From: Candidatus Krumholzibacteriia bacterium
GTDB lineage: Bacteria; Krumholzibacteriota; Krumholzibacteriia; JAJRXK01
Length of the DNA stretch: 64,000 nucleotides
Direction of reading: 5' to 3'
NCBI GenBank assembly: GCA_035268685.1
Contig: DATFKK010000145.1
Coordinates: 168-64,167, forward strand
A program made the translations under genes and the position numbers. Below, in pieces: positions 35,092-54,069 of this stretch. Within the stretch, counting starts at the first letter, position 1. The number at the start of each line of letters is the position of its first letter. The notes below the pieces were generated by a model, which saw only the letters and a list, made by a program, of their open reading frames with translations, ran no database searches and was not told the DNA's origin.

Positions 35092-35613
35092 GTGTTCGTC
35101 GAGATGGGCGAGGTCGTCAATGCCGTCGGACTGCGGGGCGAGCTCAAGCTCCTGGTCACCGGCAACATCGACGAGGACGTGCTGCAGAGCGAGTTCCTGC
35201 GTATGCGCCCGCCGGGTGGTCCGGATCGTCGGGTGCAGTGCACGCAGCACCGCTGGAAGGGCCGGACGCTGATCGTCCGAATCCACGGAGTCGAGGATCG
35301 CGACCGGGCCGAGGAACTGAAAGGGCAACTGCTGGGCTTCGGGTCCGAGGACTACGACCAGCCCGGCTTTCCCAAGGGAGACGAACTCCCGGCTTTCGTC
35401 TACCACGACCTCGAGGTCGTCACGACGGAGGGAGAGAGGATCGGACGCGTCGACGACGTGTGGATGCTTCCCGCCAACCGGGTGTTGCGGGTGCTCACCT
35501 TCGACGACGAGCGCGAGATCCTCGTGCCGGTGATCGACGACTTCGTCCGCGAGGTCGATCGGTCGGCCGGCCGCGTGGTGATCGAGCCCGTGCCCGGGCT
35601 GCTCGACGACTGA
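35092..35613 (+). CDS. rimM: Ribosome maturation factor RimM
   Basis: VGLRGELKL...PRC-barrel C-terminus; conserved position. Confidence 0.9.
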   Translation: MFVEMGEVVNAVGLRGELKLLVTGNIDEDVLQSEFLRMRPPGGPDRRVQCTQHRWKGRTLIVRIHGVEDRDRAEELKGQLLGFGSEDYDQPGFPKGDELPAFVYHDLEVVTTEGERIGRVDDVWMLPANRVLRVLTFDDEREILVPVIDDFVREVDRSAGRVVIEPVPGLLDD

Positions 35614-35641
35614 GCGCCGGCGCGGCGAAGGGAAGAGCGCG

Positions 35642-36352
35642 CTGCGCATCGACCTGCTGACCCTCTTCCCGCGGCTCTGCCGGCGCGTGCTGGCCGAGGG
35701 CGTGGTGGGACGAGCGCTGCAGCGTGGGACGGTGCGTTGCGTGGTGACGGACTTCCGGCTGTTCGCCGCCGACCGTCACGGAACCGTCGACGACACGCCC
35801 TACGGGGGCGGACCGGGCATGGTGATCCGGCCCGAGCCCGTGGTGGAGGCGGTCGAGTCGGTGCGGATCGGTCGGGCGCCGGTGGTGTTGCTGACACCGC
35901 AGGGACGGCGCTTCGACCAGCAACAGGCCGAGCGCTGGGCCGACATGCTCCAGCGTCCGGCGGGCGACGATGCGGGGCAGTTGATCCTGCTCTGCGGTCG
36001 CTACAAGGGTTTCGACGAGCGCGTCCGCGAGCTCGTGGTGACCGACGAGATCTCCCTCGGCGACTTCGTGTTGTCGGGGGGCGAACTGGCCGCCCTGGCG
36101 GTCATCGATGCGGTGGTGCGGCGCGTCCCCGGAGTGCTGGGTCGGCAGGAATCGGCCGACACCGACAGCTTCGGGCCGGCGCGCGACGGCCGCCTCGACT
36201 GCGGATGGTACACGCGTCCGCCGGAGTACCGTGGGCTGCCCGTGCCGGCCCCGCTGCTCTCGGGCGACCACGCCGCGATCGAGAAGTTCCGACAGCGGGA
36301 TTCCGAAGCGCGCACGCGCGCCCGGCGTTCCGACCTGAGCGACGACGCCTGA
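35642..36352 (+). CDS. trmD: tRNA (guanine37-N1)-methyltransferase TrmD (start non-canonical, see findings)
   Basis: RTVDDTPYGGGPGMV and SLGDFVLSGGE. The conserved N-terminus RIDLLTLFP is encoded in frame upstream of the first canonical start (GTG 35687). The coordinate given is the CTG aligned to Met1 of homologs. Confidence 0.8.
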   Translation: MRIDLLTLFPRLCRRVLAEGVVGRALQRGTVRCVVTDFRLFAADRHGTVDDTPYGGGPGMVIRPEPVVEAVESVRIGRAPVVLLTPQGRRFDQQQAERWADMLQRPAGDDAGQLILLCGRYKGFDERVRELVVTDEISLGDFVLSGGELAALAVIDAVVRRVPGVLGRQESADTDSFGPARDGRLDCGWYTRPPEYRGLPVPAPLLSGDHAAIEKFRQRDSEARTRARRSDLSDDA

Positions 36353-36442
36353 TCCGGTGACCCCGGGCGGGCGCAGACCCGACCCGCGGCGCGCCGCCGG
36401 GTGGACCCTCGGTCCCCGTGAGGGGCCGGACAGGAGCCGACC

Positions 36443-36805
36443 ATGAACATCCTCGATTCGATCCGTCACGACGGCGTGAAGCAGGACGTGCCCGACTTCC
36501 GTGTCGGCGACACCGTGAAGATCCAGGTGAAGGTGCGCGAGGGGAACAAGACGCGTCTGCAGATGTTCCAGGGCGTCGTCATCGACCGGAAGGGCTCGGC
36601 CATCGAGGAGTGCTTCACGGTGCGCAAGCTCAGCTCGGGCGTGGCCGTCGAGCGCGTGTTCCCGGTGCACTCGCCGAACATCGAGAGCATCGAGGTCGCC
36701 CGTCGCGGCAAGGTCCGCCGGGCACGCCTCAACTACCTGCGCGGGCGCAGCGGCAAGGGCGCGCGCATCGCCGAGCGCCGGGAAGACACCAGGACCAAGA
36801 GGTAG
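36443..36805 (+). CDS. rplS: 50S ribosomal protein L19
   Basis: [29 protein letters not shown]. Confidence 0.95.
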
Positions 36806-36814
36806 GTCCGGACC

Positions 36815-37480
36815 TTGTCCGGACCCGATCGCCGCCATCGCCTCGACCGGCGTCTCGCGCGCCGGGTCGAGGGGGGTCTCGTCGCCGGTGTCGACGAGGC
36901 GGGTCGTGGCTGCCTGGCCGGGCCCGTGGTCGTGGCCGCCGTGGTGCTCCCCGCCGACGCCGACCTCCCCGGGGTGCGTGACTCGAAACTCATGACACCC
37001 GACGCGCGCGAGGATGCCTACGCGCGCATCCGCGCCTGCGGTGCGCGCTTCGCCGCCCTCGCGGTCTCTCCGCGCGAGGTCGACCGCCTCAACGTGTTGC
37101 ACGCCAGCGAGCGCGGCATGGAGCGCGCGGTGGAGCGCCTCGAGCGCCGCCGCCGCTTCCGGGCCGGCGCCGTGCTCGTCGACGGACATCGTGTTCCCGC
37201 GGCTCTGGGCGGCCGGGGTGTGCCCCTGGTGAAGGGTGACGACCGGAGCCTGTGCATCGCCGCGGCGAGCGTGCTGGCCAAGGTGCTCCGCGATCGTCTC
37301 ATGCGGGCCTGGAGCCGCCGGTATCCCGTGTACGGTTTCGAGCGGCACGTGGGCTACCCGACCCCGCAACACCTCGACGCCCTCCGACGTCACGGTCCCT
37401 GTCCGCTGCACCGTTTCTCCTTCGCCCCGGTGGCCGCGGCCGCGCAGCCCCGGCTCGACGGTGACCTCGCGGCCGAGTGA
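36815..37480 (+). CDS. rnhB: Ribonuclease HII
   Basis: VAGVDEAGRGCLAGPVV, DSK motif. TTG start. Confidence 0.9.
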   Translation: MSGPDRRHRLDRRLARRVEGGLVAGVDEAGRGCLAGPVVVAAVVLPADADLPGVRDSKLMTPDAREDAYARIRACGARFAALAVSPREVDRLNVLHASERGMERAVERLERRRRFRAGAVLVDGHRVPAALGGRGVPLVKGDDRSLCIAAASVLAKVLRDRLMRAWSRRYPVYGFERHVGYPTPQHLDALRRHGPCPLHRFSFAPVAAAAQPRLDGDLAAE

Positions 37481-37516
37481 AGTCCACGACCCGCCTCCCG
37501 CGGGTGGTTCCCCGTC

Positions 37517-37900
37517 ATGTCCGATCACGATCCCCTGCGCGGAGCCGTCGAACGGGGCCGCGCGGGTGAGGACGTAGCTGCTCTGTACCTGCGGCTGCAG
37601 GGGTTCTCGATCCTCGACCGCAATCGGCGGGGCGACGGAGGGGAGATCGACCTCGTCGCACGCGAGGGCACGAGTCTCGTCTTCGTCGAAGTCCGCCTGC
37701 GGCGGGCGGGCGCGCGCGTTCCCGCGGCCGAATCGATCTCGGCGGCGAAACGGCTCCGGCTGCGCGCGGTCGCGGGGCGGCTGCTGCGCGACCGCGACGA
37801 CCTGGCCTGGCCGGCGCGCACCGTGCGTTTCGACGTGGTGACCCTGCGGCTCGACGACGACGGGCTCGACCTGCGGCACCTGCGGGCGGTTCGCGTCTGA
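37517..37900 (+). CDS. yraN: YraN-family (UPF0102) predicted endonuclease
   Basis: GEIDLVAREG..LVFVEVR pattern in the conserved position after rnhB. Confidence 0.85.
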   Translation: MSDHDPLRGAVERGRAGEDVAALYLRLQGFSILDRNRRGDGGEIDLVAREGTSLVFVEVRLRRAGARVPAAESISAAKRLRLRAVAGRLLRDRDDLAWPARTVRFDVVTLRLDDDGLDLRHLRAVRV

Positions 37901-37969
37901 GACACCGCGTTGACCCCGGCGCCGCGCGCTCACTACCTTTGCGTGGAGTCTCTTCCCGCGATCCGGCAG

Positions 37970-40900
37970 GTGTTCGTGCGCGCGACCAGCACAGTCCTCG
38001 TCCTGCTCGTCGTCCTGGGCGCCGGTGTGGCCCGTGCCGACGACGTCCCGCGGGTCGACCTGGATCGCACCCTCCCGCGCGCGTCCGACGCACCCACCCG
38101 CGTGCGATGGTTCCTGCAGCCCGATGGGGCGGATCTCTCGACACTGCAGCGCCGGGCCACCGACGACGGGGTGGACCTCGTCGCGCGCCTCGATCGCTTC
38201 GGCGGCGACTGGGTGATCGAAGCGGACGCCGCACGCGCCGCCGAGATCGAATCCACGTGGTCGGCCCTCGGAACGTTGCGGCGCGACGTCTCGGGCACGC
38301 CGGCCCTCGCCGGCTCGACCGCCCTCGTGGGTGTTCGCTCCTTCGTCTGGGACGAACTCGAGTACCAGGGCGATCCGGTCTCGACGATCGCGATCCTCGA
38401 CAGCGGCTGCGACACCGCGCACGACGACCTCGGCGATCCGCGCGACGACGACATCGACGAGCCGCCGCTGGCCGGCGACGCCAGCGACTGGTTCGACGTC
38501 CAGGGATCCTATCCGTCCGACCTCCGCCTGCGCGTGGCCGGCTGGCACGACGTGACCGACGACCTGCCCGACGCGGTCGGACCCTGGGACTACCACTTCC
38601 ACGGGACGGCGCTGGCGAGCGCGGGTTTCGGTGGGGGGCGGGTCGACGGCGACGGGCGTGGGGTGGCTCCCGGGGGCCGGCTCGCGATCGTGAAGACCTG
38701 GAACTTCGAGGACCGGTGGGAGGTCTGGGCCAGCGATCTGCTGCTCGGTTTCGACTGGGTGCTCGACCATGCGGACCGGCTCCGGATCCGCGCGTGTCTG
38801 GTGGGGGCGACGTGGGCGGAGGATCCCGGATTCGGCCCCGCGATCGACGCGCTCGCCGCACGCGGGATCGCCGTGGTGGCTCCGGCCGGCAACGAGCCCG
38901 GCGCCGACATGGGCTACCCCGCGCGCCTGCCCGGCGTGATCGGCGTCGGTGCCTCTGACGCTGAGGGTGCTGTCGCCACCTATTCCTCGTGGGCGCCGGG
39001 GGACGAAGACCCCGGGACGCTCGACCTGATCGCGCCCGGCGGGAGCAGGATCGATCCCGATGCCCGCCTGCGCGTGGCCGACAACGAACCCCAGGACGCG
39101 TACGCCTTCCGCTTCGGGACCTCTCTCGCCGCGGCCCACGTGGCCGGTACGATCAGTGTCCTGTCCGAGACGATGGCCTCGGTGTCGCACCCGTGGAGGG
39201 CCGACGCCTCGCAGGTGTCGTGGATCACCGACGTGCTCAGAGCCACCGCGGCCGAAGTCGCGGCTGCCGAATCGAGCGCCGTCTTCGAACCACGGGTCGT
39301 TCGGACCGGAGCCGATCGCTTCGCCGGTCACGGGCTCCTGCAGGTCCGAGCCGCCGTCGACGCCGTCCGCAACGTGGTGTGGCCGGGCGACGACGTGCCC
39401 TTCACGCTCGACGCCCCGACCGAGGGCCCCGCGGTGTGGGCGGCCCGGGTGCCGGTCTCGATCCCGCGACCGCTCGGCTTCCGACTGCAGGTCGGGGACC
39501 TGGCCGACTTCGATCTCGTCGTGTACCGCGAGACGGACGCCGGACTCGACCCCGTGGGCGCGAGCACGCGCGCGGGCGTGGGATTGGACGAGCGGGTGGA
39601 ACTGGCGACCTCGTGGACGGGTTGGGCCGTGGTGGTGGTCCGCCGGATCGAGGGCACCGGTCTGGCACGTCTCCGCGTGGAGAACCGTGCGCCCGTGCTC
39701 GAGGGTTGGCCCCTGGAGCTCAGCGCGCGCCAGGTCACCAGTCCGACCGGCTACGACTTCGGGAACGACGGCTCGACCGAGGTCGTCACCGTGAACAACC
39801 TGCAGGCCTTCCCCGACGGCCACGCCTTCCACGTCGTGACCCTGGCCGGCGAGGACGTCGGGATCTTTCCCGAGCAGTTCTTCACTCCGGGCCGGGCCGG
39901 CGAACTGACCGAGCCGGCGGTGGGCCGTCTGGGACCGGTGGAGGCCATCGTGGCCGGGAGCGAATTCGGTCAGGTGCTCGCGGTCGACGCCGCGGGCGAT
40001 CTGCTCTGGATCCGCACGGTGTCGTTGTTGTCGACCACGTCGCCCGTGCTGGTCGACGAGGGACCCGACGCGCGGATCGCCGTCGGGACCAGCGCCGGAA
40101 TCGCGATCCTCGATCCGAGTGGGCAGGTCGTCCAGGAGATCCCGATCGGCGGACCGGTCGAGGTCCCGCCCGCGGCGGGGGATCTCGACGGTGACGGACG
40201 CGACGAACTGCTGGTCGCCGACGTCGTGGGCAACGTGACCGCAGTCGAGACCGACGGCACGGTGTTGCCGGGCTGGCCGGTCGCCCTGGACGGTCGCTCC
40301 ACGGCTCCCGTGCTTCTCGGCACGGCCACCGGAACGCGGGTCGACGAGGTGGCGCTCGTCGGGCTCGACGGCGGCGGGGCGTGGCTGCACCGCTGGCGGA
40401 CCGACGGCAGCCGGATCGGGGCGACACCGATCACGCTCGACACCGATGCGCTCCCCGTGACGGCCCTTTCGCCTCTGGTCGTGGCCCGGCTCGAGCGAGG
40501 GCGCGCGCCGAGCTACGTGGTCGCGACCGTGGCCGGAGCCGAGGAGGCACCGATCGAGGCGCGGGTCCACGTGGTGGAACTCGATGGCTCGCAGAGGGTG
40601 TGGTCGCGGACACACGCCGCGCCGCACTTCGTCGACGGTCGCCTCGACGTGTACCGGGCCCTCCTCGGGGAACCGCGGGTGACCGACGTCACCGGGACGC
40701 CCACACGCGAGATCGTGGTCCCGACCATCGTCGGGTGGGGCGAAAGCGTTCGCGGGATCGAGTACCGCTACGGACTCGTGTCGGAACTCGTCCGGTGGAG
40801 CACGACCGCCGGGGCGGTGCCGATCGCGGTGGAACTCCCGCGCGAGCGATTCCCCGATCGTCGCACCGTCGCGCCGCTCGTGCAGGACCTCGACGGTGAC

Positions 40901-41347
40901 CAGCGGGCGGAGTGGATCACGGCACGGGGCAGTGCCCTGACCCTGCTCGGCAGCGGGACCGTCGACACCGCTGTCGGCGCATGGACCGACGAGCGGGGTG
41001 GCTCGGACCGTCGGGGGTGTTTCGAGTGCCGCGAGCGCGTCGCGGTGGACGTCCCGGAGACCACGAGCCTTTTGCGTCCGGAGCTCGAAGTGCACCCGAA
41101 CCCCTTCAACCCGCGGACGTCGATCCGTCTCCGCGTGCCACGGGCCGGAGCCGTGCACTGGTCCGTCTTCGACGCGCGGGGGCGGCGTGTTCGCGAGGAG
41201 TACGGTCGGGTCGATGGGGCCGGCACGGTCGAGTGGCGCTTCGACGCGACCGACGACACCGGATCGCCTCTCGCCAGTGGGGTCTATCACGTGGTGGCGC
41301 GGTGGAACGCGAGAACGGCCCACGCCCGTATGGTTCTGGTGCGCTGA
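37970..41347 (+). CDS. Secreted S8 subtilisin-like peptidase with FG-GAP/VCBS-like repeats and T9SS C-terminal sorting domain
   Basis: Signal peptide (VLVLLVVLGAGVARA); catalytic triad context DSGCDTAHDDL, HGTALAS, GTSLAAAHVAG; repeats DLDGDGRDELLVADV and DLDGDQRAEWI. The last 85 aa (HPNPFNPRTSIRL...SGVYHVV) fit the type IX secretion CTD. The start is ambiguous among TTG 37910, GTG 37943 and GTG 37970. Confidence 0.8.
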   Translation: MFVRATSTVLVLLVVLGAGVARADDVPRVDLDRTLPRASDAPTRVRWFLQPDGADLSTLQRRATDDGVDLVARLDRFGGDWVIEADAARAAEIESTWSALGTLRRDVSGTPALAGSTALVGVRSFVWDELEYQGDPVSTIAILDSGCDTAHDDLGDPRDDDIDEPPLAGDASDWFDVQGSYPSDLRLRVAGWHDVTDDLPDAVGPWDYHFHGTALASAGFGGGRVDGDGRGVAPGGRLAIVKTWNFEDRWEVWASDLLLGFDWVLDHADRLRIRACLVGATWAEDPGFGPAIDALAARGIAVVAPAGNEPGADMGYPARLPGVIGVGASDAEGAVATYSSWAPGDEDPGTLDLIAPGGSRIDPDARLRVADNEPQDAYAFRFGTSLAAAHVAGTISVLSETMASVSHPWRADASQVSWITDVLRATAAEVAAAESSAVFEPRVVRTGADRFAGHGLLQVRAAVDAVRNVVWPGDDVPFTLDAPTEGPAVWAARVPVSIPRPLGFRLQVGDLADFDLVVYRETDAGLDPVGASTRAGVGLDERVELATSWTGWAVVVVRRIEGTGLARLRVENRAPVLEGWPLELSARQVTSPTGYDFGNDGSTEVVTVNNLQAFPDGHAFHVVTLAGEDVGIFPEQFFTPGRAGELTEPAVGRLGPVEAIVAGSEFGQVLAVDAAGDLLWIRTVSLLSTTSPVLVDEGPDARIAVGTSAGIAILDPSGQVVQEIPIGGPVEVPPAAGDLDGDGRDELLVADVVGNVTAVETDGTVLPGWPVALDGRSTAPVLLGTATGTRVDEVALVGLDGGGAWLHRWRTDGSRIGATPITLDTDALPVTALSPLVVARLERGRAPSYVVATVAGAEEAPIEARVHVVELDGSQRVWSRTHAAPHFVDGRLDVYRALLGEPRVTDVTGTPTREIVVPTIVGWGESVRGIEYRYGLVSELVRWSTTAGAVPIAVELPRERFPDRRTVAPLVQDLDGDQRAEWITARGSALTLLGSGTVDTAVGAWTDERGGSDRRGCFECRERVAVDVPETTSLLRPELEVHPNPFNPRTSIRLRVPRAGAVHWSVFDARGRRVREEYGRVDGAGTVEWRFDATDDTGSPLASGVYHVVARWNARTAHARMVLVR

Positions 41348-41351: not shown

Positions 41352-42215
41352 TCAGGCCGTACGCCGCCGTGCCTCGGTCCACCAGCCGAGCAGGCGGGTG
41401 CGGAGACGGTCCGGCCATGGGATCGGCGAGGGCCGCCGATCGAGTGCCGCGAGGATGTGCGGGACGGCGGCCGTGCCCGCCCGGTACCCGACCTCGATCA
41501 ATTCCTCGTGTCGCTTCAGATCGAACGAGTGGAAGCCCCGCAGGTCGGGCTCGATCAGCACGTCGGCCAGGGGGACGGCCTCGCGCGCGTTGCGCACGGC
41601 CACGATCCCGATGGTCCGCATGATCATGGCCAGTAGATGACCTGGGCGCGGCGTGAAGTCGGCGAAGGATCCGAGGTGCACGCCGACCATGGTCGTACAG
41701 CCGATGTCGCGGAGCGTGGGCAGGGGCAGGTACTCGAGGAAACCCCCGTCGGCGTAGAGCCCGTCGCCGATCTCGACGGGACTGAAGATCTGCGGGATCG
41801 AGCAGCTGGCCTGAACGGCGGGAGCCACGGGTCCGTGGCTGAAGACGGCCTTGCCCCCGCTCAGCAGGTCGGTGGTGACCACGTGGGTGGGGATCTCGAG
41901 GTCCTCGAAGGTCAGGTCTCCGACCGTGTCGCGCACGAGTTCCGCCACGCCCTGGTTGGAGAACAGGCCGAGACGGGGAATGCGCACGCGGGCGAGGCGT
42001 CTCCAGTTCACGCGGCCGGCCATCTCGACCATGCGGTCGGTGCCCACACCGGAGGCGTAGACCACGGCGATCAGGCTACCGCCGCTCGTCCCCGCGATCA
42101 CGTCCGGACGCAGCCCGGCTTCCTCGATCGCCTGCAGCACGCCGATGTGGGCGATGCTCTTGGCGGTTCCTCCGGAGAGCGCGAGGCCCAGGGTCGGACG
42201 CGGCAGATCGCTCAT
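41352..42215 (-). CDS. Patatin-like phospholipase
   Basis: Oxyanion GGTAKS, nucleophile GTSGG, catalytic DGG. GGGAGA RBS before ATG 42213-42215. Convergent with the S8 gene; stops are 4 bp apart. Confidence 0.85.
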   Translation of the reverse strand: MSDLPRPTLGLALSGGTAKSIAHIGVLQAIEEAGLRPDVIAGTSGGSLIAVVYASGVGTDRMVEMAGRVNWRRLARVRIPRLGLFSNQGVAELVRDTVGDLTFEDLEIPTHVVTTDLLSGGKAVFSHGPVAPAVQASCSIPQIFSPVEIGDGLYADGGFLEYLPLPTLRDIGCTTMVGVHLGSFADFTPRPGHLLAMIMRTIGIVAVRNAREAVPLADVLIEPDLRGFHSFDLKRHEELIEVGYRAGTAAVPHILAALDRRPSPIPWPDRLRTRLLGWWTEARRRTA

Positions 42216-42281
42216 GGGTCGGTATCTCCCGGGTGCGGTCGGGGAGTCACCGCTGTCGATCGGCACCGGCGTGCGGACGGC

Positions 42282-42635
42282 TCAGGACGCGTGCGCGTGC
42301 GTGGCGTACTCGATCGCGGCGTTGCGACTCGACTCCAGTCGAAAGTACTCGGTGAGCCGGGTCATCTCCAAGACCTTCATCACCGCAGCGTCGACGTTGC
42401 ACAGGACCAGGACGCCGCGCACGCGTTCCAGGGCGGTCGCCACGCTGACCAGGGCCGAGAGGCCCGAACTGTCGACGTAGCGCACGGCGTGCAGGTCCAG
42501 CACGACCGCTCGGGCTCCGTCCTCGACCTGGTTCAACATGGATTCGCGCAGATCGACACTGTTGGTGATGTCGACGGCCCCTTCGGGCTCGTGCACCGGA
42601 ACACTGGACAGGGTGTCATGCGTCGGTACGTTCAC
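42282..42635 (-). CDS. STAS-domain anti-sigma-factor antagonist (SpoIIAA/RsbV-like)
   Basis: VLDLHAVRYVDSSGLSAL...LVLCNV pattern with the conserved phosphorylatable Ser. Confidence 0.8.
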   Translation of the reverse strand: MNVPTHDTLSSVPVHEPEGAVDITNSVDLRESMLNQVEDGARAVVLDLHAVRYVDSSGLSALVSVATALERVRGVLVLCNVDAAVMKVLEMTRLTEYFRLESSRNAAIEYATHAHAS

Positions 42636-44268
42636 GGTCTCGCTCTCCTGATCGGGAATCGGAATCGTCGACGTCCGGGGTCCGTCGGACCACGATCAAC
42701 GTCGTGTCGTCGTGACGCGGCGTCGTGCCGCAGTGCTCGTCGATCGCGGCGAGGATACGATCACGCAGATCGGATGCGCCGAGACCGCGACTGTGCGCGA
42801 GCACGCGGTGCAGACGATCGGCCCCGAACTGCTCGCGCGAATGATCCATGGCTTCGCTCACGCCGTCGGTGTACAGGACCATGGTGTCGTCGATGGCGAG
42901 TCGGAAGGTCTGCGCTTCGTAACTGGCGCCCGGCCGCAGGCCGAGCGGCAGGGCCGGCAACGGGAAGCTGTCGATGCGTCCGGTGTCCGCGCGTCGGATG
43001 GAGGGCGCGTCGTGTCCGGCCGTCGAGTAGCCCACCGTTCCGGTTCGCGGGTCGAGGGCGGCGAACACGGCGGTCACGAAGCGGGCGCCGAATCCCTCGG
43101 CGCAGAGCAGGCGGTTCACCTCGCCGAGGATCGCAGCCGGATCCGAGTGACGTGTCGCGGTCGCGCGGAACAGGGCCCGGGTCGCGGTCATGATCAGACC
43201 CGCCGGAACGCCCTTGCCCGACACGTCGGCCACCACGAGCCCGAGCCGACCGTCCGGCAGGTCGAAGTAGTCGAAGTAGTCACCGCCGATCATCGTGGCC
43301 GACACCGACGAGCCGTCGATCTCGAGTCCGGGACGGTCGGGCGGTTCGGAGGGCAGGAGCTGACTCTGGATCTGGTGCCCGACCTTCAACTGCTCCTGTT
43401 CACGTTCGCGCGAGAGCTTCATCTCGATGAGCAGTGCGTTCTCCACCGCGGTCGCCGCGAGACCCACCCCGGAGCGGACCGACGCCAGCAGCGGACTCTC
43501 GACCGCCGTCACGTGCTGCGGAGCGACCAGATTGATGCAGCCCCACAGGGCGTCGTTGGTACACAGCGGCAGCATGAGCAGCCGGTCGAAGTTGTACTGG
43601 CCCTGGTGGTCCGACCGCAGGTCCTCGCGGGCCAACAGGACCGGTTCCCGCGAGGTCATGATCTCGTCGATCACGCGCCGCCCGTCGGCGCGTTGCAGGG
43701 CCATCAGTGCGTCGTGCGGGAGGCCCCAGTCCACGGCGGTGACCAGTTCGTCGTGGTGCAGGAGCGTGATCGACCCGATGTCCGAACCGAGATGGGCCGA
43801 TGTCAGTTCGAGGATGTTCACCAGCAGCATGTCGAGGTCGAGCTGGCCGATGAGCTTGCCCATCTCGTCGAGATAGAACAGCTGTTCGCGCATTCGATCG
43901 TTGTCCGACAGGACGTCGTCGAGATACAGCGACCGGAAGATCGCCGGCGAGAACTGGGTCTGCAGGATCGAGGGTAGGGCCGGGTCGTCGGGAACCCGGT
44001 GGAAGAGCACCGCACCCAGGGGACGATCGCGGAACGAGAAGCGTACGGCACGCGACGGTACTTCGGCTTCGACGAAGGACCGTGCCGCGGCCGCGTCGTG
44101 CGGGCAGCGATCCTCGAGGTACAGGTCGCCCTCCTGGTCGAACAGGTAGAGCCCGCGAGCGGTACCGTCGAGCGAGACGAAGAGGGCTTCGGTGACCTCT
44201 TCCGGGGTCACTGCCGAGGCGAGCCGTTCGGCCAGTGCCTCGCGATCGATCCGGACGGTGGTGGTCAC
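42616..44268 (-). CDS. GAF-domain PP2C-family (SpoIIE/RsbU-like) serine phosphatase
   Basis: C-terminal PPM motifs GGDYFD, VADVSGKG, YTDGVSEA and N-terminal GAF-like region. GTG start overlaps the HDOD gene stop (GTGA). Confidence 0.85.
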   Translation of the reverse strand: MTTTVRIDREALAERLASAVTPEEVTEALFVSLDGTARGLYLFDQEGDLYLEDRCPHDAAAARSFVEAEVPSRAVRFSFRDRPLGAVLFHRVPDDPALPSILQTQFSPAIFRSLYLDDVLSDNDRMREQLFYLDEMGKLIGQLDLDMLLVNILELTSAHLGSDIGSITLLHHDELVTAVDWGLPHDALMALQRADGRRVIDEIMTSREPVLLAREDLRSDHQGQYNFDRLLMLPLCTNDALWGCINLVAPQHVTAVESPLLASVRSGVGLAATAVENALLIEMKLSREREQEQLKVGHQIQSQLLPSEPPDRPGLEIDGSSVSATMIGGDYFDYFDLPDGRLGLVVADVSGKGVPAGLIMTATRALFRATATRHSDPAAILGEVNRLLCAEGFGARFVTAVFAALDPRTGTVGYSTAGHDAPSIRRADTGRIDSFPLPALPLGLRPGASYEAQTFRLAIDDTMVLYTDGVSEAMDHSREQFGADRLHRVLAHSRGLGASDLRDRILAAIDEHCGTTPRHDDTTLIVVRRTPDVDDSDSRSGERDRERTDA

Positions 44269-45203
44269 GCGAAGCTCCCCGCGATCGACGAGACCTCGTC
44301 CTCGACCGAGGCGATCACGTCCTCCACCCGTTCGGGCGCGGTGTCGAGTTCACGGCAGAGCGATTCGACCCTTCCGCTGGCGTTCGGGTTGCGGCACGTG
44401 CGTGCGTAGCCGTGCAGGTCGAGCATCGCGTTGACCACGGCCACACCGAGAACCAGGGGGTCGTCCCGGATCGCGTCGATCGGTTCGTGGTGCCGGGTGA
44501 TGGCACCGAGGAGTTCGTCGGGCAGTCCCCAGCGCTCGTGGACCAGTCCGCCCACCTGCTGATGATCGATTCCCAGCAGCCGGTGTTCTCCGACCGGTTC
44601 GAGCGCAGTGGCGGCGTTCGCCTCGATCTCGCGGCGCACCCGGGGGTAGAACTCGCTCATCGCGATCCGTCCCACGTCGTGCAGGAGGCCCGCCACGAAC
44701 ATCTCGTCGGCGACTTCGCGAAGGGCGCCGACCTTGCGCGGCAGGCGCGCGGACGCCAGGCCGCTGGCAAGACTGAACAGGAAGACGCCGTTGGGCTCGA
44801 AGGTCGGGACGCCCAGGGATCCGCCCATGGTGTTCCGGAGGCCGGCCGCCATGACGAGATTGGCGACGGTCCGGAAGCCCAGGGTCATGACCGCGCGGCC
44901 GACGTCGACGACCTCGCCCGAGCGGACGTAGAAGGGGCTGTTGGCCATCTTCAGCACACGCGTGGTCAGACTCGCGTCACTGGAGATGCGTTCCTCGAGG
45001 TGTTTGATGTCGGCGTCGGCGTCGCGCAGCTCGCGCATGAGCTCGTGCAACAACGCCGGCAGGGCGGGCAGGCGGCGGATCGCGGCGTCGACTTCGGCGG
45101 TCGACGGGCGCACGTCGGCGACTCCGGTGTTGGAGCCGGCCGCGGTTCCGCGGGAGCGTCGGGAATCGCGCGAGACGTAGTCGTCGTATCGGAGTTTCGC
45201 CAT
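44265..45203 (-). CDS. HDOD-domain signalling protein
   Basis: HDOD pattern (LPALPALLHELMREL...DIKHLEERISSDASLTTRVLKMANSPFY...GLLHDVGRIAM). AGGAGA RBS before ATG 45201-45203. Confidence 0.8.
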   Translation of the reverse strand: MAKLRYDDYVSRDSRRSRGTAAGSNTGVADVRPSTAEVDAAIRRLPALPALLHELMRELRDADADIKHLEERISSDASLTTRVLKMANSPFYVRSGEVVDVGRAVMTLGFRTVANLVMAAGLRNTMGGSLGVPTFEPNGVFLFSLASGLASARLPRKVGALREVADEMFVAGLLHDVGRIAMSEFYPRVRREIEANAATALEPVGEHRLLGIDHQQVGGLVHERWGLPDELLGAITRHHEPIDAIRDDPLVLGVAVVNAMLDLHGYARTCRNPNASGRVESLCRELDTAPERVEDVIASVEDEVSSIAGSFA

Positions 45204-45378
45204 GGTCTCCTGGTCCCCAGGACCGCGGGTTCTCGGGTTGGCGTTGCCTCGGGCGTGCGCTAGTGTCCGCTCGTTCGAGCGGGAACCTTCCGTCGTACCG
45301 CGTACCGGTGCGTACGGGACGCGCGTCACCCTCCAGAACCGGGGCATCGATCGTGCCCGAACGACCCCGTCGCCGCCC

Positions 45379-48300
45379 ATGAGCTACCTCCGAGCGCTCG
45401 ACGCGGCGCGATCGCACCTCGATCGCGGCGACCTCCTCGCGGCCGAGGCCGAACTCGAACGCGCCCATGACGAATGGAGGCGGTCCCGCGTCCGTGCGCC
45501 CCTCGTCGAGCGCGGACTGGAACCGGCCCTGCGCCGATTCGGCCGTTGGTTCGGGAGGAAGTCGACGTCCCCCGTCCTCCCCGTCTTCGGCCACCGGGCC
45601 ACCAGACTGGAGGACGATCTCCGCGCGTTGGCCAGACTCCTCCACGACGAGGCCCTGCGCACCGCAGGCCGTGAGGCCAAGGATCTCGTCGAGTCCGACC
45701 GCCAACTGCTCGAGCGCGCCCTCCGCCTGGACCGGCGGAGCCGGATCTTCGGATTCGAACGCCCCGAGCGCTGGGACGTGCTCCACGGCTACCTCGAGGC
45801 CTGCCGCCGCCTGGCCCGCAGCGTGGACGAGGGCCTGCTCCCCACCGACGTGGCCGACGCCACGCAGGAGGAGTGGCTCGGGCGGTGGGCCGAATCGGTG
45901 TTGTCGGGGAGCGGCGTCGTGTCGACGCCCCTGCTGCGATGGCTGGAGCGTCAGGCCGCGGCGGTGGCTCGCCTGGAGGGTCCCGGGGCCGACGCCTGGA
46001 GCTGGATCGCGGCGCGAGGAGCCCTGCGCGATCCCGAGGGAGGCGAACGGGCCCTCGCGCACGTCGAGCGCGCGCTGCGCGGCGACCTCGACGAAACGTC
46101 GCGGGAGGCGGCACGTCGGGCACTGGCCGGACTGCTCGTGAACGAGGGGGTTCTCGCGGTCCCGGGGGCCGATGCCAGGGAGGCGCTCGAGCGCTGGACC
46201 CCGGAGGAGCACGGTGCGGTCTGGCCGCCACCGGAGATCGCGGAGCTGCTCGACGCCCGGACCGCGCGTGCGGACGAGCGACCGGTGGCATCGGTGGTGT
46301 GGAGTGGCGACGCGGCGAACCTCGTGGTCGTCCTGCATCGCGGCAGCACGCCACTCGACGCCCTCGCCGTGTCGCCGCGTGTCGACGCGGGGGAGGGGAG
46401 GTCGCGGTTCGAGGCGTCCCTGCCCGAGGTTCGTGGCTGGCTCCGGCGATGGCTTCCCGACGGGACGCTGATCCTGGCCGACGGAACGCTGCCCGCAGGA
46501 CTGGCCGAACTCTTCGCCTGGTGGCAGGTGCTCGACGTCGAGGCCCTGGTACACCGGATCGACAGTGGGGGCGATCCCGTCGAGGAGACCGCTCCGGTCG
46601 CGCCGCACCCCCTCTGGAGCGGGCCCCACGGGCACCCGGTCTTCCGCCCCCTGGCCGACCGCGCCCGAAGCCTCGTGCCACGCCTCCGGGGGTGGATCCG
46701 CGCCAGTCCCTCGTTCACCGAGCCCTGGGGACGCGACGCCCTCGGCCAGCTCGCCGACCACGGATTGGAGCTGTGCGGGCTCCTGCGCCAGGCGATCGAA
46801 CGCCTCGACGAAGCCCGACCCGGCGGCGAGAGACGGTTGCAGACCGTGGACCTGGTGGTGCCCCTGCAGTGGCCGCGCCTCGAGACCCGCGACTGGCCGA
46901 TGGCGTCGACCGGCGATCCGATTCCGACCGGACGCGGGGTCGATCGCTCGCGCCGGGGGACCATCTGGCACGATCGGCCGGCGACCCCGGAGGAGTTGGT
47001 CGACGTCGCCAGCTCGAGCGAGCGCGCGGAACTCCTGACCGCGAGCCTGTCGCGGGCCCGGGATCTTGCCGCGCGGAGTGCCGCCCGGATCGATCCCCGG
47101 CGGGTGAGCGTGGCCCCGCGCCGGGTGCGGTGTCCGGAGGCCTGGCTGCGACGGCTCGACGACACCATCCGCACGGCGGTGGGTGCGTCCGAGCGACAAC
47201 TGCACGTTCTCGCACTGTGGAAGTCCCTCGCCGAGACCCCCAACGGGGATCCCGACCTGCCCGGGGACCTGCCGGCTCCCCCCGTCCCGGATGCCGTCTG
47301 TGGCGACGCCTGTCGGCTCACCGCCCGCGGTGGCTGCTGGCCGGCCCAGATCGAGGGCCGCCGTGAGGCGGCACGGGTGTGGGTGGTTCCGATCGGGGAG
47401 TCGGGGCTGACGCTGGAGGAACCGTCCGACACGTTGTTCGACGATCCGCGCACGTGGACGGTCGGCATCGACGACACCGGAGCCGCCGACCGCCTGGCCT
47501 TCACCATCGACCGCGCCCGGGCGGCGGATCGATCGTGGGTCTGGGTCGTCGGCGGTGTGCTCGATCCTGCCCTGCGGACCCACTGGAATCGAATGGTTCC
47601 CGTCGCCCTCCACCAGGTGACGAGCGAGAGCCGGGAGGCCGCCGACGTGGTGATGGCTCCGCCGGGCTATCGGCCGGGTGATCCGGTGCTCGGGGAGTGG
47701 TCCGAGCGGGTCCTGGAACGTCGGATCGCCGCGTGGCGCGAACTCGGGGGCGGTGATCACCGCTGGTGGGAGCCGGTCGGATCGCCGCCGGACGCGGCGG
47801 CCTCGGTCGAGGGTGCGGGGACCGGACGGTCGCACCGCTTGGTCGTGACCGCGCGCCTCGCCGGACCTGCCGTCCGGGATCCACTGCTGCTGCTGCTGCG
47901 GGCCACGGCCGGTCTCGGCCACGCGGCGGAGAGCTGGGTCTGCCTCGACCCTCGCCTGGCGCACGTGCTCGGCAGCGAGGGGGGCTGGTTCCATGGCGAA
48001 GCGTCCCGTCGCGGGGGGACCCGTGGAGGTGCGGCCGAGGCGCTCGACGCGAGTGTCGCGAGCGGGCGCGATCTCCTGACTGCGCGCGGGGTGCAGGCGG
48101 GCGCCGCGTGGACCACACCCCTCGACGCCGATCGCCTGCGCGCCGCCGCCGCGGTCCGTGACGAGAGCCAGGACTTCGGCGCCGAGGCGCTGGCGCGGAC
48201 CACGCGGGACTGGGCCCGCGGTCGACCGCTGATCGTGGGGGGCGCGACCGACCGCCAGCGCGATCGCGTCGTGCGTCTGGTCCGCGAGCTCTCCGAGCGC

Positions 48301-51300
48301 AGCGGTGACGGCGGTCCGCTCGGGGTGCGTTGCGTGGTCGTCGTCGGAACACCGCCCGTCGACGAGCTCGATGCCAGGTCTGCCGTCGTCGGGCCCGGCG
48401 AGGTGGAGCGTCTGGGGGCCATCATGCTCGAGGCCGAGCGTGGTCGTCTCTCGCGCGTCGATCTCCATCCGCTCCTGCTGCTCGAGGACGCCGTCCGGGA
48501 GTGGGCGCAACGCGTGTCGAGCGTGGCCTGGGTCTTCGTGCACGGCGAAGAGGTCCTGGCCACCCTCGAGAGCATCGACGGGCCGGCGTCGGAGGCGGCG
48601 GCCATGCACCCGTGGCGCGACGTTCTCGAGCGTTCCGGCGCGGGGGCGATGGTCTTCGTCGACGCCGTCGAATCCGACGCCCGCAGCGTGCCGGCGCGCT
48701 GGGCCGCCGCCCTCGACGCCCGCGTCGCCGTCGTCGAGACCGGTCGCGAGGCCTTTCCGCGCTGGCGTCTCGAGGTCGAGGTGATCGACGTTCCGGCTCT
48801 GGAGTGCCCCGAGTGCGGATCCGCAGTGCCGAGTGATCCCTCCCTGATCGCGTGCCCCGCCTGCGGTCGGACGCTGCCGGGGGATCCTGCGTCGGAGCGG
48901 CACCGCCTGCGGGCATTCGAGAACGCGCTGGTGCGCGCGTTGCAGCGGCCCACCGACGAACCGTGGTGGGCGATCGGGGCCGATGCCGATCTGGTGCAGC
49001 GTCTGCGCTCGCGGCTGGGGTTCGAGAGCTACACGGAGGACCAGGCGCCCCTCCTGGCCGGGGTCGGGGCCGGAGAGCACGGTCCGGACGTCCTGCACGT
49101 CGAGGCGCTGCGCCACCGGAGCGGTCCTCCCCCTGGCCTGCTCTGGATCGATTGCCCGCGCTCGGTGTCCGAACTCGAGGGCCTCCTCCTGCGACTGACC
49201 GCGATGGAAGCGCCGGCGCCCCGTCTTCGGTTGTTGCTCCCCCCGGTCGGTGCGAGATGGGCGGCCGATCCCCGTCTCGCCGGCCGGTGGCGATGGACCG
49301 CCAGCCGGACCGAGGTGGAGTTCCGTCTGCGCGGCACGGGCCCCGCGCGTTCGCGTCGCCCGTCGCACGCGGGGCTGCGTCCGGAACCGGAGCAACCCTT
49401 CGACCGACCCGGAGTCATCGCCCGACGCAGAGGGGTCCTCGGCGTCGACGCCGACCGACCCGCTCCCGACCCGTCGGCGATGCTCGATGCGCTCGACGCC
49501 GTGGGGCCGGTCTTCGGGGCGGTGACGGCGGCACCGATCGACGAGGCGGCTCTTCCTGCCGACGTGGACGTGGAGGAACTCGCCGGACTCCTGGACTGGG
49601 CACGGCGGGCCGAGGTGATCGAACGCGTCGACACCGAGGGTGCCGACGTCGTCGAGCTCCCGTCCTTCGAGCGCGCGATCCGTGGGGTCGCTCCCGACGC
49701 GACCGTGGCCCTGGCGGACGTGGTCACGGGAGACATGCGCGGCTCGGCCACCGAAGAGGTCGCGGAGCCGCACCCGGGAGCGGTCCGGGCGTCGGTGATC
49801 GGGGGCGAGGGCGAGCGTCGTTTGCGCGACGACGTGGAACGAGCCGCGCTCCGTGGAGACCGGGTCCTGGTCGTCGTCGCGCATCCCGGCGGGCGTCTTC
49901 GCTGGGAGCCCCTCGCGAGCGAAGGGGCCGACGTCGTCGACATCGAGGAGCTGGCTCTCGCCTTCCTCGACGCGAGCTCGGGCCGGAGCGAAGGCGACGT
50001 GGTGCGTCGCCTCCTCCCGGTGGGCGGGGCCGCCGAAGGAGAGGAGGTCCGACTGCGACTGATGCGGGGCGCCTCGCGGCGCTACGTGCGGGCCACCGGG
50101 AACGTCCCGGCGATCGAGGCGCAGGACCTGAGGCGTGTGGTCCAGGGTGAGGCCGGTGCGATCGCGCCCGGTTCGGCCGCGGACGTCGACCTCGATCTGC
50201 TCTCCCGGTGCGCAGCCCAGGCCCGGGCCGAGGCCGGCTGGATGACGCCGGCCGAGTTGCGTGTCGCCACGGTCCGGGCGGTCGAGCGCGAAGCCGAGCT
50301 GGTCGAGCGATGGCGACGTCGCTATCGCTGGGCGGCCGTCGACGGAGCCCACGACGTTCCGCCCGATCTGCTCGAGTTCGTCCGGGCGCTGTTCCCGACA
50401 CCGCGCCGATGGGAGCTCTTCGATCCGCTCCTGATGCCGTCCGACGCGGACGTCCCGGTCGGCGCCGAGGCCACGGTGAGCGCCACCCTGCCCCGCGAGT
50501 GGGTGGGGGCGATCGAGACGCTCCGGCGATCGGATCCCGCACTGCCGAGTCGTCTGCGGACGACTCGCCGCGGACGCGGGGCGGGAACGGTCGAACGGGT
50601 GCGGGTGCTGACCCTGCAGGCCGCGGCCGAGTGGGTGATCGAGCAGGTGCCGCCGGACCGCGCTGCCGATCGGACCGGAGTGGTCGTCGGCCACGAGCAC
50701 GACCGGGCCGAACTGCGGGCCGCACTGGAGCGCGCGGGCCACGCCGTGGTGGAGGACCGCACGGCGGCGAGTTGGCTGGCGAGTGGACCGCGGCACCTGC
50801 TCGCAGCGTTGAGACTGGTGGTCTTCGAGCCGGAGGCCGGGGTGCTCGACGTGCTCGCGCGTCTGGATCCCGTTCTGCGCGACGCCGATCACGAGGCCCG
50901 GTTGCAGCGCTGGATCGCGGCCGAGACCGACGTCTCGGGTCTCGACGTGCGAGAACTCCGCCTGGCTCGACTGCACCGCGTGCGCGAGCGGGTCGATGCG
51001 GAGGATCGTCTGGTCGACGCGGCCGCCGCGGTGCTCGACAGCGGCATCCTCGATCCTCTGCTCGGCGCCGATGCCGCGTCGGGACGCCTGCGCGATTGGT
51101 TGGCCGACCACGGTTCCCGTTCGGTGGCCGAGGTCCTGGCGCGGCTCGATTCCGCCCTGGTGGTCGATCCCGTGGCGCCCGGTCGCGGTCTTCACCTGCT
51201 GGCCCCCGACGACCTGGCCGGGCCCGACCATGATCACGTGATCGCCATCGGGACCGGCTACGAGCTGCCGGCTCGTCTCGTGCGCGTGCTCCTGCGGGCC

Positions 51301-51348
51301 CGACGGCGGGTCAGTCTCCTCTACTCCGAGCGCGACCCTCTCGCCTGA
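45379..51348 (+). CDS. Giant (about 1990 aa) hypothetical protein with no recognised catalytic motif, carrying an internal 4-Cys zinc-ribbon-like motif
   Basis: Uninterrupted frame with very high GC3 (ctc/gac/gcg/gag codons) typical of genuine genes here. No Walker A, TM or signal segments. CPECGSAVPSDPSLIACPACG lies near residue 1150. ATG 45379 chosen; the ORF is open from 45202. Confidence 0.7.
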   Translation: MSYLRALDAARSHLDRGDLLAAEAELERAHDEWRRSRVRAPLVERGLEPALRRFGRWFGRKSTSPVLPVFGHRATRLEDDLRALARLLHDEALRTAGREAKDLVESDRQLLERALRLDRRSRIFGFERPERWDVLHGYLEACRRLARSVDEGLLPTDVADATQEEWLGRWAESVLSGSGVVSTPLLRWLERQAAAVARLEGPGADAWSWIAARGALRDPEGGERALAHVERALRGDLDETSREAARRALAGLLVNEGVLAVPGADAREALERWTPEEHGAVWPPPEIAELLDARTARADERPVASVVWSGDAANLVVVLHRGSTPLDALAVSPRVDAGEGRSRFEASLPEVRGWLRRWLPDGTLILADGTLPAGLAELFAWWQVLDVEALVHRIDSGGDPVEETAPVAPHPLWSGPHGHPVFRPLADRARSLVPRLRGWIRASPSFTEPWGRDALGQLADHGLELCGLLRQAIERLDEARPGGERRLQTVDLVVPLQWPRLETRDWPMASTGDPIPTGRGVDRSRRGTIWHDRPATPEELVDVASSSERAELLTASLSRARDLAARSAARIDPRRVSVAPRRVRCPEAWLRRLDDTIRTAVGASERQLHVLALWKSLAETPNGDPDLPGDLPAPPVPDAVCGDACRLTARGGCWPAQIEGRREAARVWVVPIGESGLTLEEPSDTLFDDPRTWTVGIDDTGAADRLAFTIDRARAADRSWVWVVGGVLDPALRTHWNRMVPVALHQVTSESREAADVVMAPPGYRPGDPVLGEWSERVLERRIAAWRELGGGDHRWWEPVGSPPDAAASVEGAGTGRSHRLVVTARLAGPAVRDPLLLLLRATAGLGHAAESWVCLDPRLAHVLGSEGGWFHGEASRRGGTRGGAAEALDASVASGRDLLTARGVQAGAAWTTPLDADRLRAAAAVRDESQDFGAEALARTTRDWARGRPLIVGGATDRQRDRVVRLVRELSERSGDGGPLGVRCVVVVGTPPVDELDARSAVVGPGEVERLGAIMLEAERGRLSRVDLHPLLLLEDAVREWAQRVSSVAWVFVHGEEVLATLESIDGPASEAAAMHPWRDVLERSGAGAMVFVDAVESDARSVPARWAAALDARVAVVETGREAFPRWRLEVEVIDVPALECPECGSAVPSDPSLIACPACGRTLPGDPASERHRLRAFENALVRALQRPTDEPWWAIGADADLVQRLRSRLGFESYTEDQAPLLAGVGAGEHGPDVLHVEALRHRSGPPPGLLWIDCPRSVSELEGLLLRLTAMEAPAPRLRLLLPPVGARWAADPRLAGRWRWTASRTEVEFRLRGTGPARSRRPSHAGLRPEPEQPFDRPGVIARRRGVLGVDADRPAPDPSAMLDALDAVGPVFGAVTAAPIDEAALPADVDVEELAGLLDWARRAEVIERVDTEGADVVELPSFERAIRGVAPDATVALADVVTGDMRGSATEEVAEPHPGAVRASVIGGEGERRLRDDVERAALRGDRVLVVVAHPGGRLRWEPLASEGADVVDIEELALAFLDASSGRSEGDVVRRLLPVGGAAEGEEVRLRLMRGASRRYVRATGNVPAIEAQDLRRVVQGEAGAIAPGSAADVDLDLLSRCAAQARAEAGWMTPAELRVATVRAVEREAELVERWRRRYRWAAVDGAHDVPPDLLEFVRALFPTPRRWELFDPLLMPSDADVPVGAEATVSATLPREWVGAIETLRRSDPALPSRLRTTRRGRGAGTVERVRVLTLQAAAEWVIEQVPPDRAADRTGVVVGHEHDRAELRAALERAGHAVVEDRTAASWLASGPRHLLAALRLVVFEPEAGVLDVLARLDPVLRDADHEARLQRWIAAETDVSGLDVRELRLARLHRVRERVDAEDRLVDAAAAVLDSGILDPLLGADAASGRLRDWLADHGSRSVAEVLARLDSALVVDPVAPGRGLHLLAPDDLAGPDHDHVIAIGTGYELPARLVRVLLRARRRVSLLYSERDPLA

Positions 51349-51641
51349 CCGACCACGGTCGACGGTGGGAAGGGTCGGCCCCTCGGCGGTGGGAACTCCC
51401 TTCCGCATGATGCGTCGCGCCGGGACCGGGAACCGGCCCGATCCACCCATGCGTGGCACGCGTGACCCTCTCGGGGAACTGGCACGCCTCGTGCGGAGGC
51501 GAATGCGGACGTTCACGCAGGCCCGTTCCGGGGCCGGAAGCCGTGCGAACGCCGATGCCGCCGTTCGGGAGACCCGCAATCCGCACGATCGCGATCGGGA
51601 TTCGGGACCGAGCCCAGATCGCACGAAGGAGCAAGGAAACC

Positions 51642-52202: not shown

Positions 52203-52238
52203 GCTCGGATCCGCCACGGGTGGAAACGGGAACGACGA

Positions 52239-54052: not shown

Positions 54053-54069
54053 TCGGAGCGGGGCTGCGG

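Follow-up and report, generated by a model that had tools for sequence, protein, structure and literature searches.

A stand-alone HDOD protein paired with a GAF-PPM phosphatase and a STAS antagonist in Krumholzibacteriota: a candidate input half of a partner-switching pathway

Introduction

What does a partner-switching phosphatase with its STAS antagonist control when neither a kinase nor a sigma factor is encoded beside them, and what is the HDOD protein at their head doing? These questions were raised by an operon on the minus strand of a 64,000-nucleotide stretch of DNA from a Candidatus Krumholzibacteriia bacterium (assembly GCA_035268685.1, contig DATFKK010000145.1, positions 168 to 64,167; hereafter the window). 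The operon carries genes for a stand-alone HDOD protein, a GAF-containing PPM phosphatase, a single-domain STAS protein and a patatin-like phospholipase. The initial annotation, made from the sequence, regarded this architecture as unusual and suggested that the module might control the lipase or a giant protein encoded divergently. In our analysis, the module was best explained, with a probability of about 0.55, as the input half of a partner-switching pathway, in which the HDOD protein would be an accessory regulator of the phosphatase and the kinase and the target would be encoded elsewhere. The overall logic is that of an ordinary partner-switch input module, and nothing in it departs from general partner switching. 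What has not been described before is the pairing of a subfamily-specific HDOD accessory with a phosphatase bearing a private N-terminal module.

Gene organization of the operon

The features of the operon were as follows, with the supporting evidence in brackets.

44265 to 45203, minus strand: stand-alone HDOD protein, 312 amino acids (aa) (Pfam PF08668, start codon with ribosome-binding site, PDB relatives, orthologue alignment)
44265 to 44268, minus strand: GTGA overlap of HDOD stop codon and phosphatase start codon (sequence; the same 4-nt overlap in L001, L003, L006, L007, L008, L074 and L075)
42616 to 44268, minus strand: sensor PPM/PP2C (SpoIIE-family) phosphatase, 550 aa (Pfam SpoIIE and GAF, AlphaFold2 (AF2) model, Foldseek)
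43846 to 44244, minus strand: N-terminal module of the phosphatase, alpha/beta domain at aa 9-89 and helix at aa 98-141 (AF2, phmmer)
43525 to 43836, minus strand: GAF domain of the phosphatase, aa 145-248 (Pfam GAF at 144-252, AF2)
43357 to 43494, minus strand: long helical linker between GAF and PPM, predicted helix at aa 259-304 (AF2)
42682 to 43326, minus strand: PPM catalytic domain, aa 315-529 (Pfam SpoIIE at 338-529, AF2, Foldseek)
42616 to 42635, minus strand: overlap of the phosphatase 3' end and the STAS 5' end, 20 nt (sequence)
42282 to 42635, minus strand: single-domain STAS protein of the anti-sigma-factor-antagonist type, 117 aa (Pfam STAS, TIGR00377, PDB relatives)
42468 to 42470, minus strand: codon of STAS Ser56, the predicted phospho-acceptor in D55-S56-S57-G58 (alignment to SpoIIAA 1TH8)
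41352 to 42215, minus strand: patatin-like phospholipase, 287 aa from ATG 42215 (Pfam Patatin, motifs)
45204 to 45378, no strand: divergent intergenic region between the HDOD gene and the giant gene, 175 bp, presumed location of the promoter (sequence)

The four genes were confirmed at these positions, and all four assignments were well over the curated Pfam cutoffs: HDOD (PF08668, E 2.9e-45, 154.6 bits vs a cutoff of 22.9), SpoIIE with GAF (PF07228, E 1.1e-49, and PF01590, E 4.5e-6), STAS (PF01740, E 2.4e-19) and Patatin (PF01734, E 6.9e-32, 111.6 bits vs a cutoff of 27.7). The GC content of the window was about 70%, and coding frames were picked by a frame-specific GC content at third codon positions (GC3) of 82-94%. 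The operon genes were considered real because GC3 was 82-88% in the four called frames and orthologues were found down to 37% identity.

The HDOD gene starts at ATG 45203, preceded by GGAG, which gives 312 aa compared with 371 aa for the maximal open reading frame (ORF); the end coordinate proposed initially was therefore correct. The STAS gene starts at GTG 42635 with GGAG upstream, and the phosphatase stop lies at 42616. For the patatin gene, the most likely start from the sequence is ATG 42215, which has GGGAGA ahead, lies 66 nt past STAS and is in line with orthologues of 284-309 aa; its maximal ORF begins at GTG 42266. Both the GTGA and the 20-nt overlap were read in the sequence as described initially, the former indicating translational coupling of HDOD and phosphatase. 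The patatin gene is probably co-transcribed with the module, and its functional membership is uncertain. The initial annotation had also named two arrangements that would speak against it, an RsbW-sigma pair immediately upstream and a response regulator-HDOD fusion split by a frameshift, and neither was found. The fusion was ruled out, since the 371-aa maximal ORF contained no receiver domain and the orthologues are stand-alone proteins.

Specificity and conservation of the HDOD-phosphatase pair

The order HDOD-phosphatase-STAS was present in all Krumholzibacteria-type loci compared (L001, L003/4, L007, L008, L009, L010, L073, L074 and L075), at identities from 87% to about 37%. Conservation of this neighbourhood, which had been left to be checked, thus holds to 37% identity within the lineage. 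The 4-nt overlap of HDOD and phosphatase was kept in eight of the ten arrangements, and the phosphatase-STAS junction varied from a 38-nt overlap to a 76-nt gap. The orthologous HDODs were all stand-alone proteins of 303-312 aa, and their set paralleled that of the phosphatases, many being encoded on the same contigs.

The pair was also found outside this context. In L005/L006, HDOD and phosphatase (40% and 45% identical to those of the window, respectively) shared the same 4-nt overlap among PSCyt/DUF1501, transketolase and other unrelated genes, with neither STAS nor patatin within 10 kb. Because the HDOD-phosphatase pair persists in this unrelated context, the pair itself was taken to be a functional unit.

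Two sets of control loci were used. A scan of genome contigs with the single phosphatase recovered one true orthologue (L010, 87%), and the other 62 loci were generic GAF-SpoIIE loci. None of these 62 had an adjacent HDOD gene, and one HDOD lay about 2 kb off on the other strand. Furthermore, 80 metagenome loci (580 kb) with generic HDODs of 26-38% identity were collected from a scan with the HDOD alignment, and no PPM, STAS or RsbW gene was present in the flanks of any of them. These results indicated that the HDOD-phosphatase pairing belongs to this subfamily and not to either family generally. In addition, no functional link of HDOD with STAS, anti-sigma antagonists, SpoIIE or RsbU was found in the literature searched. 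The architecture was therefore unusual, as first proposed, in its HDOD association, but not in having a stand-alone HDOD, which was ordinary: about 110 of the best 120 HDOD relatives were single-domain proteins of about 280-310 aa.

The operon is inherited vertically in Krumholzibacteriota. In every Krumholzibacteria-type locus, a convergent S8 peptidase gene and the rnhB-rplS-trmD-rimM-rpsP block lay downstream, and upstream of HDOD there was either the giant gene directly or leuS followed by the giant gene. Since the whole segment is collinear core genome, adjacency alone is weak evidence of functional linkage within the lineage.

Properties of the phosphatase and the STAS protein

The AF2 model of the phosphatase was built with a 29-sequence alignment and had a predicted local distance difference test score (pLDDT) of 89. 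It placed a helix of 46 residues between the GAF and PPM domains. The catalytic motifs GGDYFD (at 328), DVSGKG (at 348), TDG (at 467) and DDTT (at 520) were intact, and D330, D348, D468, D520 and D521 were invariant in the 29 orthologues. The Foldseek neighbours of the PPM domain were Pseudomonas aeruginosa RssB, Rv1364c, SiaA, SpoIIE and RsbX, with SiaA among the closest PPM structures and RssB (3F79/3EQ2) as the closest solved relative. Long helical linkers of the same kind have been described for RsbU, RsbP and RsbZ (PMC12143880). Judging from the model, an N-terminal sensor joined by such a linker to the PPM domain is the design of the partner-activated phosphatases, and the architecture would be of the type activated via sensor domains and partner proteins (PMC12143880).

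About 30 full-length orthologues of the phosphatase were obtained, with 37-100% identity. Below them came generic GAF-SpoIIE proteins of about 420-430 aa with about 35% identity, which covered 54-75% of the query and lacked the N-terminal module. When aa 1-140 were searched with phmmer against 1.84 billion representative proteins, only four members of the same family and one weak repeat match were obtained, and no homologue of this region outside its own family was detected. The module may be a dedicated docking site for HDOD, a proposal with which its family restriction fits.

The STAS protein scored 66.2 bits against NCBIfam TIGR00377 (cutoff 53.45), and its PDB relatives were SpoIIAA, TM1442 and RsbV. 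The phospho-site noted initially was retained: residues 55-58 aligned with the DSSGL of SpoIIAA in 1TH8, which places Ser56 on the SpoIIAA phospho-site. The motif DS(S/A)GLS was kept in all orthologues. The conservation of the phospho-Ser in all of them suggests a role for phosphorylation and the existence of a kinase.

Search for the kinase and the sigma factor

About 50 GC3-supported ORFs spanning the whole window were scanned with Pfam, and none contained a HATPase_c_2 or sigma-70 domain. A local RsbW-type profile was built from six kinases adjoining STAS genes or other phosphatases in unrelated loci. It was searched, with filters off, against every six-frame ORF of at least 50 aa in the window and 13 related loci, and it gave no match to an RsbW-type kinase at E ≤ 10. 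Neither a kinase nor a sigma factor was present within about 7 kb past the right edge of the window, and no sigma-70 family domain appeared in the neighbour tables of the related loci. The rest of the window was housekeeping in nature (mreBC/PBP2/rodA, pgk/tpiA/secG, EF-G, ruvAB, tgt, def/fmt, rsmB, ffh, rpsP, trmD, rplS, rnhB, PBP1 and tyrS, among others). Exact-sequence look-ups of L19, EF-G, RuvB, Tgt and Def led to NCBI entries, HKK72279.1 among them, that carry the name Candidatus Krumholzibacteria bacterium, and the host is a metagenome-assembled genome of that group.

The locus thus holds an intact PPM phosphatase and a single-domain STAS protein with DS[ST]G, without an RsbW/SpoIIAB-type GHKL kinase, a cognate sigma factor or another defined target. 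The absence of kinase and sigma factor, as annotated initially for the window, was true in every related locus examined. It was no oddity: STAS-phosphatase pairs without an adjacent kinase are common, and although 12 of the 62 generic phosphatase loci had STAS in the vicinity, an RsbW-type kinase was found in only six of these 12. Moreover, unlinked kinases have precedents in the rssB-rssC operon of Pseudomonas and in rsbQP of Bacillus subtilis (PMC12143880, PMC12923157).

Pocket of the HDOD protein

The PDB relatives of the HDOD protein were 3M1T, 3MEM and 3HC1, with matches of E 1e-18 to 4e-6. The Geobacter HDOD structure 3HC1 holds two iron ions via five His and one Asp (PMC12075610). The window protein had HD at 175-176, H214 and HH at 238-239, as in 3HC1, and Phe at position 143, where 3HC1 has the first metal-ligand His; the complete 3HC1-type di-metal pocket was therefore not present. 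The first pocket His was retained in more distant orthologues. The codon of Phe143 lies at 44775-44777. The subclade with this replacement has also lost the helicase motifs of the giant protein.

Proposed mechanism

The layout of the module, with an accessory gene, a sensor-linker-PPM phosphatase and a STAS gene, matches that of known partner-activated systems, and for this reason the HDOD protein was proposed as an accessory regulator. In the proposed mechanism, the HDOD protein would bind the phosphatase, most likely at the N-terminal module or the linker, and gate its activity, and the HDOD pocket, whose di-metal site is partly retained, would be the place where the signal is read. The phosphatase would dephosphorylate the STAS protein, the product of the next gene downstream, at Ser56, and a distal Ser kinase would re-phosphorylate it. 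The unphosphorylated STAS protein would then capture a protein encoded elsewhere in the genome. The gene anatomy, domains, motifs, conservation of the triad, specificity of the pairing and local lack of a kinase or sigma factor are observed. What we infer in this scheme is that HDOD binds the phosphatase, which way the regulation runs, that there is a distal kinase, and what the output is.

A more specific form of the proposal can be put forward only tentatively. The HDOD protein may be a dedicated regulatory subunit of a PPM phosphatase, with an HD-type pocket sensing a metal, redox state or nucleotide, which docks on the N-terminal module and switches STAS dephosphorylation on or off. If this were true, it would provide the first defined molecular partner for the widespread and mechanistically orphan HDOD domain. 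Partner-switching phosphatases would also gain a third class of accessory activators, unrelated to RsbT and RsbQ. In this form of the proposal, the module might act on something other than transcription, such as the patatin lipase encoded with it.

Several observations weigh against the proposed input module. No kinase was found in the window, its continuation of about 7 kb or the 13 related loci. In the HDOD subclade of the window (P0131-P0140), Phe or Tyr at position 143 replaces the first metal-ligand His, which may make the sensing of ligands or metals weaker there. SadB, the lone HDOD protein studied mechanistically, is a proteolysis adaptor without ligand binding (PMC12075610). Finally, part of the conserved adjacency in Krumholzibacteriota is due to synteny and not to selection for linkage.

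HDOD proteins are common in bacterial signalling, with several structures solved and with motility and biofilm phenotypes, and their mechanism has been described as not established (PMC6543031, PMC11004494). The coupling of HDOD to a phosphatase found here is strict, subfamily-specific and translational, and it provides a hypothesis that can be tested with three small soluble proteins, although the host phylum is uncultured. The module also adds to the inputs of the 'exchangeable toolkit' proposed for partner switching.

Comparison with known systems

The partner-switching systems of B. subtilis have been studied in detail. RsbU is activated by the binding of RsbT to its N-terminal domain and linker, and RsbQ is predicted to act likewise on RsbP (PMC12143880). 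Compared with RsbT-RsbU-RsbV and RsbQ-RsbP, the window module, known here from its genes, had the same arrangement of an accessory protein, a sensor-linker-PPM phosphatase and a STAS protein with DS[ST]G. RsbT and RsbQ are encoded immediately upstream of the phosphatases that they activate via the N-terminal domain or linker, and the HDOD gene likewise lies immediately upstream, overlapping by GTGA. Moreover, rsbQP sits apart from rsbV-rsbW-sigB (PMC12143880). Unlike RsbT, which is a kinase-like GHKL protein, and RsbQ, which is an alpha/beta-hydrolase, the window accessory is only an HDOD protein of the HD superfamily, and no homology to either activator was found. The sensor also differed, a novel N-terminal module plus GAF taking the place of the RsbU N-terminal domain or PAS, and RsbW and the sigma factor were unlinked.

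Sensor-linker-PPM designs, including the tandem-GAF RsbZ, follow a common activation logic (PMC12143880). Like RsbZ of Clostridioides difficile, the window phosphatase is predicted to have GAF-type N-terminal sensing and a long helical linker to PPM, with an RsbV-type STAS protein as the substrate (PMC12143880). In contrast to the window protein, RsbZ has no accessory partner and is found in a sigB context. Furthermore, the first domain of the window phosphatase was family-specific and not recognisable as GAF by sequence, unlike that of the tandem-GAF RsbZ.

BtrUVW of Bordetella, SypE-SypA of Vibrio, RbaVWY of Rhodobacter and SiaABCD of P. aeruginosa resemble the window module in combining a PPM phosphatase with a small phospho-regulated antagonist, and what they steer is not a dedicated sigma factor encoded next to them (PMC8256260, PMC3999984). 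Unlike the window, these systems encode the kinase in the same locus or protein, and none has an HDOD. SadB (Pseudomonas), GsmR (Xanthomonas), Cj0248 and the Geobacter protein 3HC1 share the HDOD fold with the window protein. These proteins are linked to motility or biofilm formation, and SadB also to AmrZ proteolysis. In the literature searched, none of the four was reported with a PPM phosphatase or STAS protein.

Patatin-like lipase and alternative explanations

The patatin-like protein had the motifs GGTAK at 15, GTSGG at 42 (Ser44) and DGG at 156, which were conserved in its orthologues. Together with the profile match, these predict a patatin with the Ser-Asp dyad and the Gly-rich oxyanion motif. 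It was the best conserved of the four proteins (55-77% identity). The gene was present in seven of the ten distinct arrangements, counting the window, and absent in L009, L073 and L006. In the window, L001, L003, L007, L008, L074 and L075, it followed STAS on the same strand after a gap of 8-85 nt.

These features would agree with the lipase being the direct output, in which dephosphorylated STAS or the phosphatase would bind or activate it and the module would control membrane-lipid turnover instead of a sigma factor. The conserved position in seven arrangements, the high conservation, the intact GTSGG and DGG motifs, the documented non-sigma outputs of STAS-only proteins (PMC8256260) and the parallel adjacency of rssA and rssB in Escherichia coli all favour this explanation. 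Nevertheless, we regard it as unlikely. In L009 and L073 no patatin gene follows STAS, and L005/L006 also lack it, with the remainder of the module still in place, and the STAS-patatin gaps are 43-85 nt in most loci, compared with the overlaps upstream. In addition, the neighbourhood is wholly collinear, which makes adjacency weak evidence, and no link between patatin and an anti-sigma antagonist was found in the literature searched. The earlier suggestion that the lipase is the controlled target was thus weak.

A kinase-independent adaptor of the RssB/RssC type was considered as well. Here, phosphatase and STAS would form a scaffold without a dedicated RsbW, for instance delivering a regulator to a protease, and HDOD would modulate it. 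The Pseudomonadaceae RssB-RssC system is similar in that a PPM and a STAS gene form an operon with neither kinase nor sigma factor alongside, and both proteins are required for RpoS degradation (PMC12143880, PMC12923157). P. aeruginosa RssB was the closest relative of the PPM domain both among solved structures and in NCBIfam. Similarly, the best NCBIfam match of the window patatin was RssA, whose gene precedes rssB in E. coli, and the two patatins were 30% identical; the patatin gene is upstream in E. coli but downstream in the window. The HDOD protein SadB being itself a proteolysis adaptor (PMC12075610) also fits. On the other hand, the window phosphatase carries a GAF domain and no receiver, RssB systems have no HDOD, and the scores fell far below the equivalog cutoffs for RssB (54.6 bits vs 700) and RssA (90 bits vs 272). 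The catalytic Asp residues and the STAS phospho-Ser were strictly conserved, as a working phosphorylation cycle predicts. An adaptor of this type is therefore rather improbable.

It is also doubtful that the HDOD protein is a mere syntenic neighbour which signals independently, for example in motility or in a manner of the cyclic di-GMP type, and that the phosphatase is regulated by its own GAF domain. The vertical inheritance and collinearity of the region would allow this, HDODs elsewhere are mostly stand-alone and tied to motility phenotypes (PMC11004494), and GAF-PPM phosphatases such as C. difficile RsbZ need no accessory protein (PMC12143880). In contrast, a bystander would hardly be expected to keep the start/stop overlap in eight of ten arrangements, to remain with the phosphatase in an unrelated context and to co-occur with the phosphatase-specific N-terminal module, and the association was absent from the 142 generic loci. 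An anti-phage defence island resembling the cyclic-oligonucleotide-based system CBASS, with patatin as the effector, was effectively refuted: the weak PADLOC/NCBIfam matches of the patatin to phospholipase effectors (E ~1e-7) were generic, PADLOC was otherwise empty, no cyclase, sensor or mobile-element genes were found nearby, GC was uniform, and the operon is embedded in housekeeping synteny conserved across the phylum. The module was therefore still best read as the input half of a partner switch with HDOD as the accessory regulator.

Intergenic region upstream of HDOD

A promoter and terminator scan of 41.0-45.7 kb gave no promoter-like site, and none that was sigma-70-like in the HDOD/giant intergenic region; the one terminator-like hairpin lay inside the phosphatase gene at chance level. 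With Rfam, nothing was found at 40.5-46 kb beyond a sub-threshold SrbA match (19 bits vs a gathering score of 69). The HDOD upstream regions of ten loci, when aligned, showed loose conservation only, with one loose A-rich motif. This element lies 15-40 nt 5' of the HDOD start (window 45204-45260) and reads CCAACCCGAGAACG in the window and L001 and ACAACGAAAAGC in L007, L074 and L075. A role as promoter or leader motif is conceivable.

Giant divergent gene and other genes in the window

The giant gene (45379-51348, plus strand) encodes a lineage-restricted protein of 1989 aa, for which only 11 homologues were found. Its one Pfam domain was a zinc ribbon (CxxC...CxxC, near aa 1143-1162). An AF2 model of the last 1100 aa matched the superfamily 1 (SF1) helicases UvrD, Rep, PcrA, AdnAB and RecB in Foldseek (E 1e-11). 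Walker A (GIAGSGK[TS]) and motif II (DDAQD) were intact in distant homologues and degenerate in the subclade of the window (IGGEGERR and VDGAHD), which suggests from the sequence an inactivated helicase module there. The giant protein was rejected as a hidden kinase or target, having no GHKL or sigma similarity and being SF1-helicase-like. The initial idea that it might be controlled by the module was likewise not borne out, since leuS intervenes between its gene and HDOD in L007, L074 and L075.

Four consecutive genes follow the giant gene at 51453-55062 on the plus strand (ORFs of 249, 219, 291 and 379 aa, without a Pfam match), the first with a clear signal peptide and a WGAVKSLY end. In L001, L003 and L008, this block likewise comes after the giant gene. 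Two long antisense ORFs on the minus strand, at 35495-41323 (1942 aa) and 44977-51624 (2215 aa), were Arg/Pro/Gly-rich and were rejected as genes, being shadow ORFs opposite high-GC coding sequence.

A subtilase (S8) of 1145 aa is encoded at 37910-41347 on the plus strand, convergently with patatin. It has FG-GAP-like repeats and, at its C-terminus, a domain of the FlgD_ig type, and the gene was conserved at this position in all Krumholzibacteria loci. At 31319-32044 (plus strand), between rsmB and ffh, a protein of about 240 aa had three PASTA repeats and no kinase or PBP domain. At 63254-64000 (plus strand), the window end cuts off a bacterial 16S rRNA gene after its 5' 725 nt, and the fall of GC to 62% in the last 2 kb was attributed to this gene. 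The stretch of about 7 kb beyond the right edge contained a 16S rRNA gene, a stretch without called genes and, past the rRNA operon, a second S8 peptidase, also with FlgD_ig.

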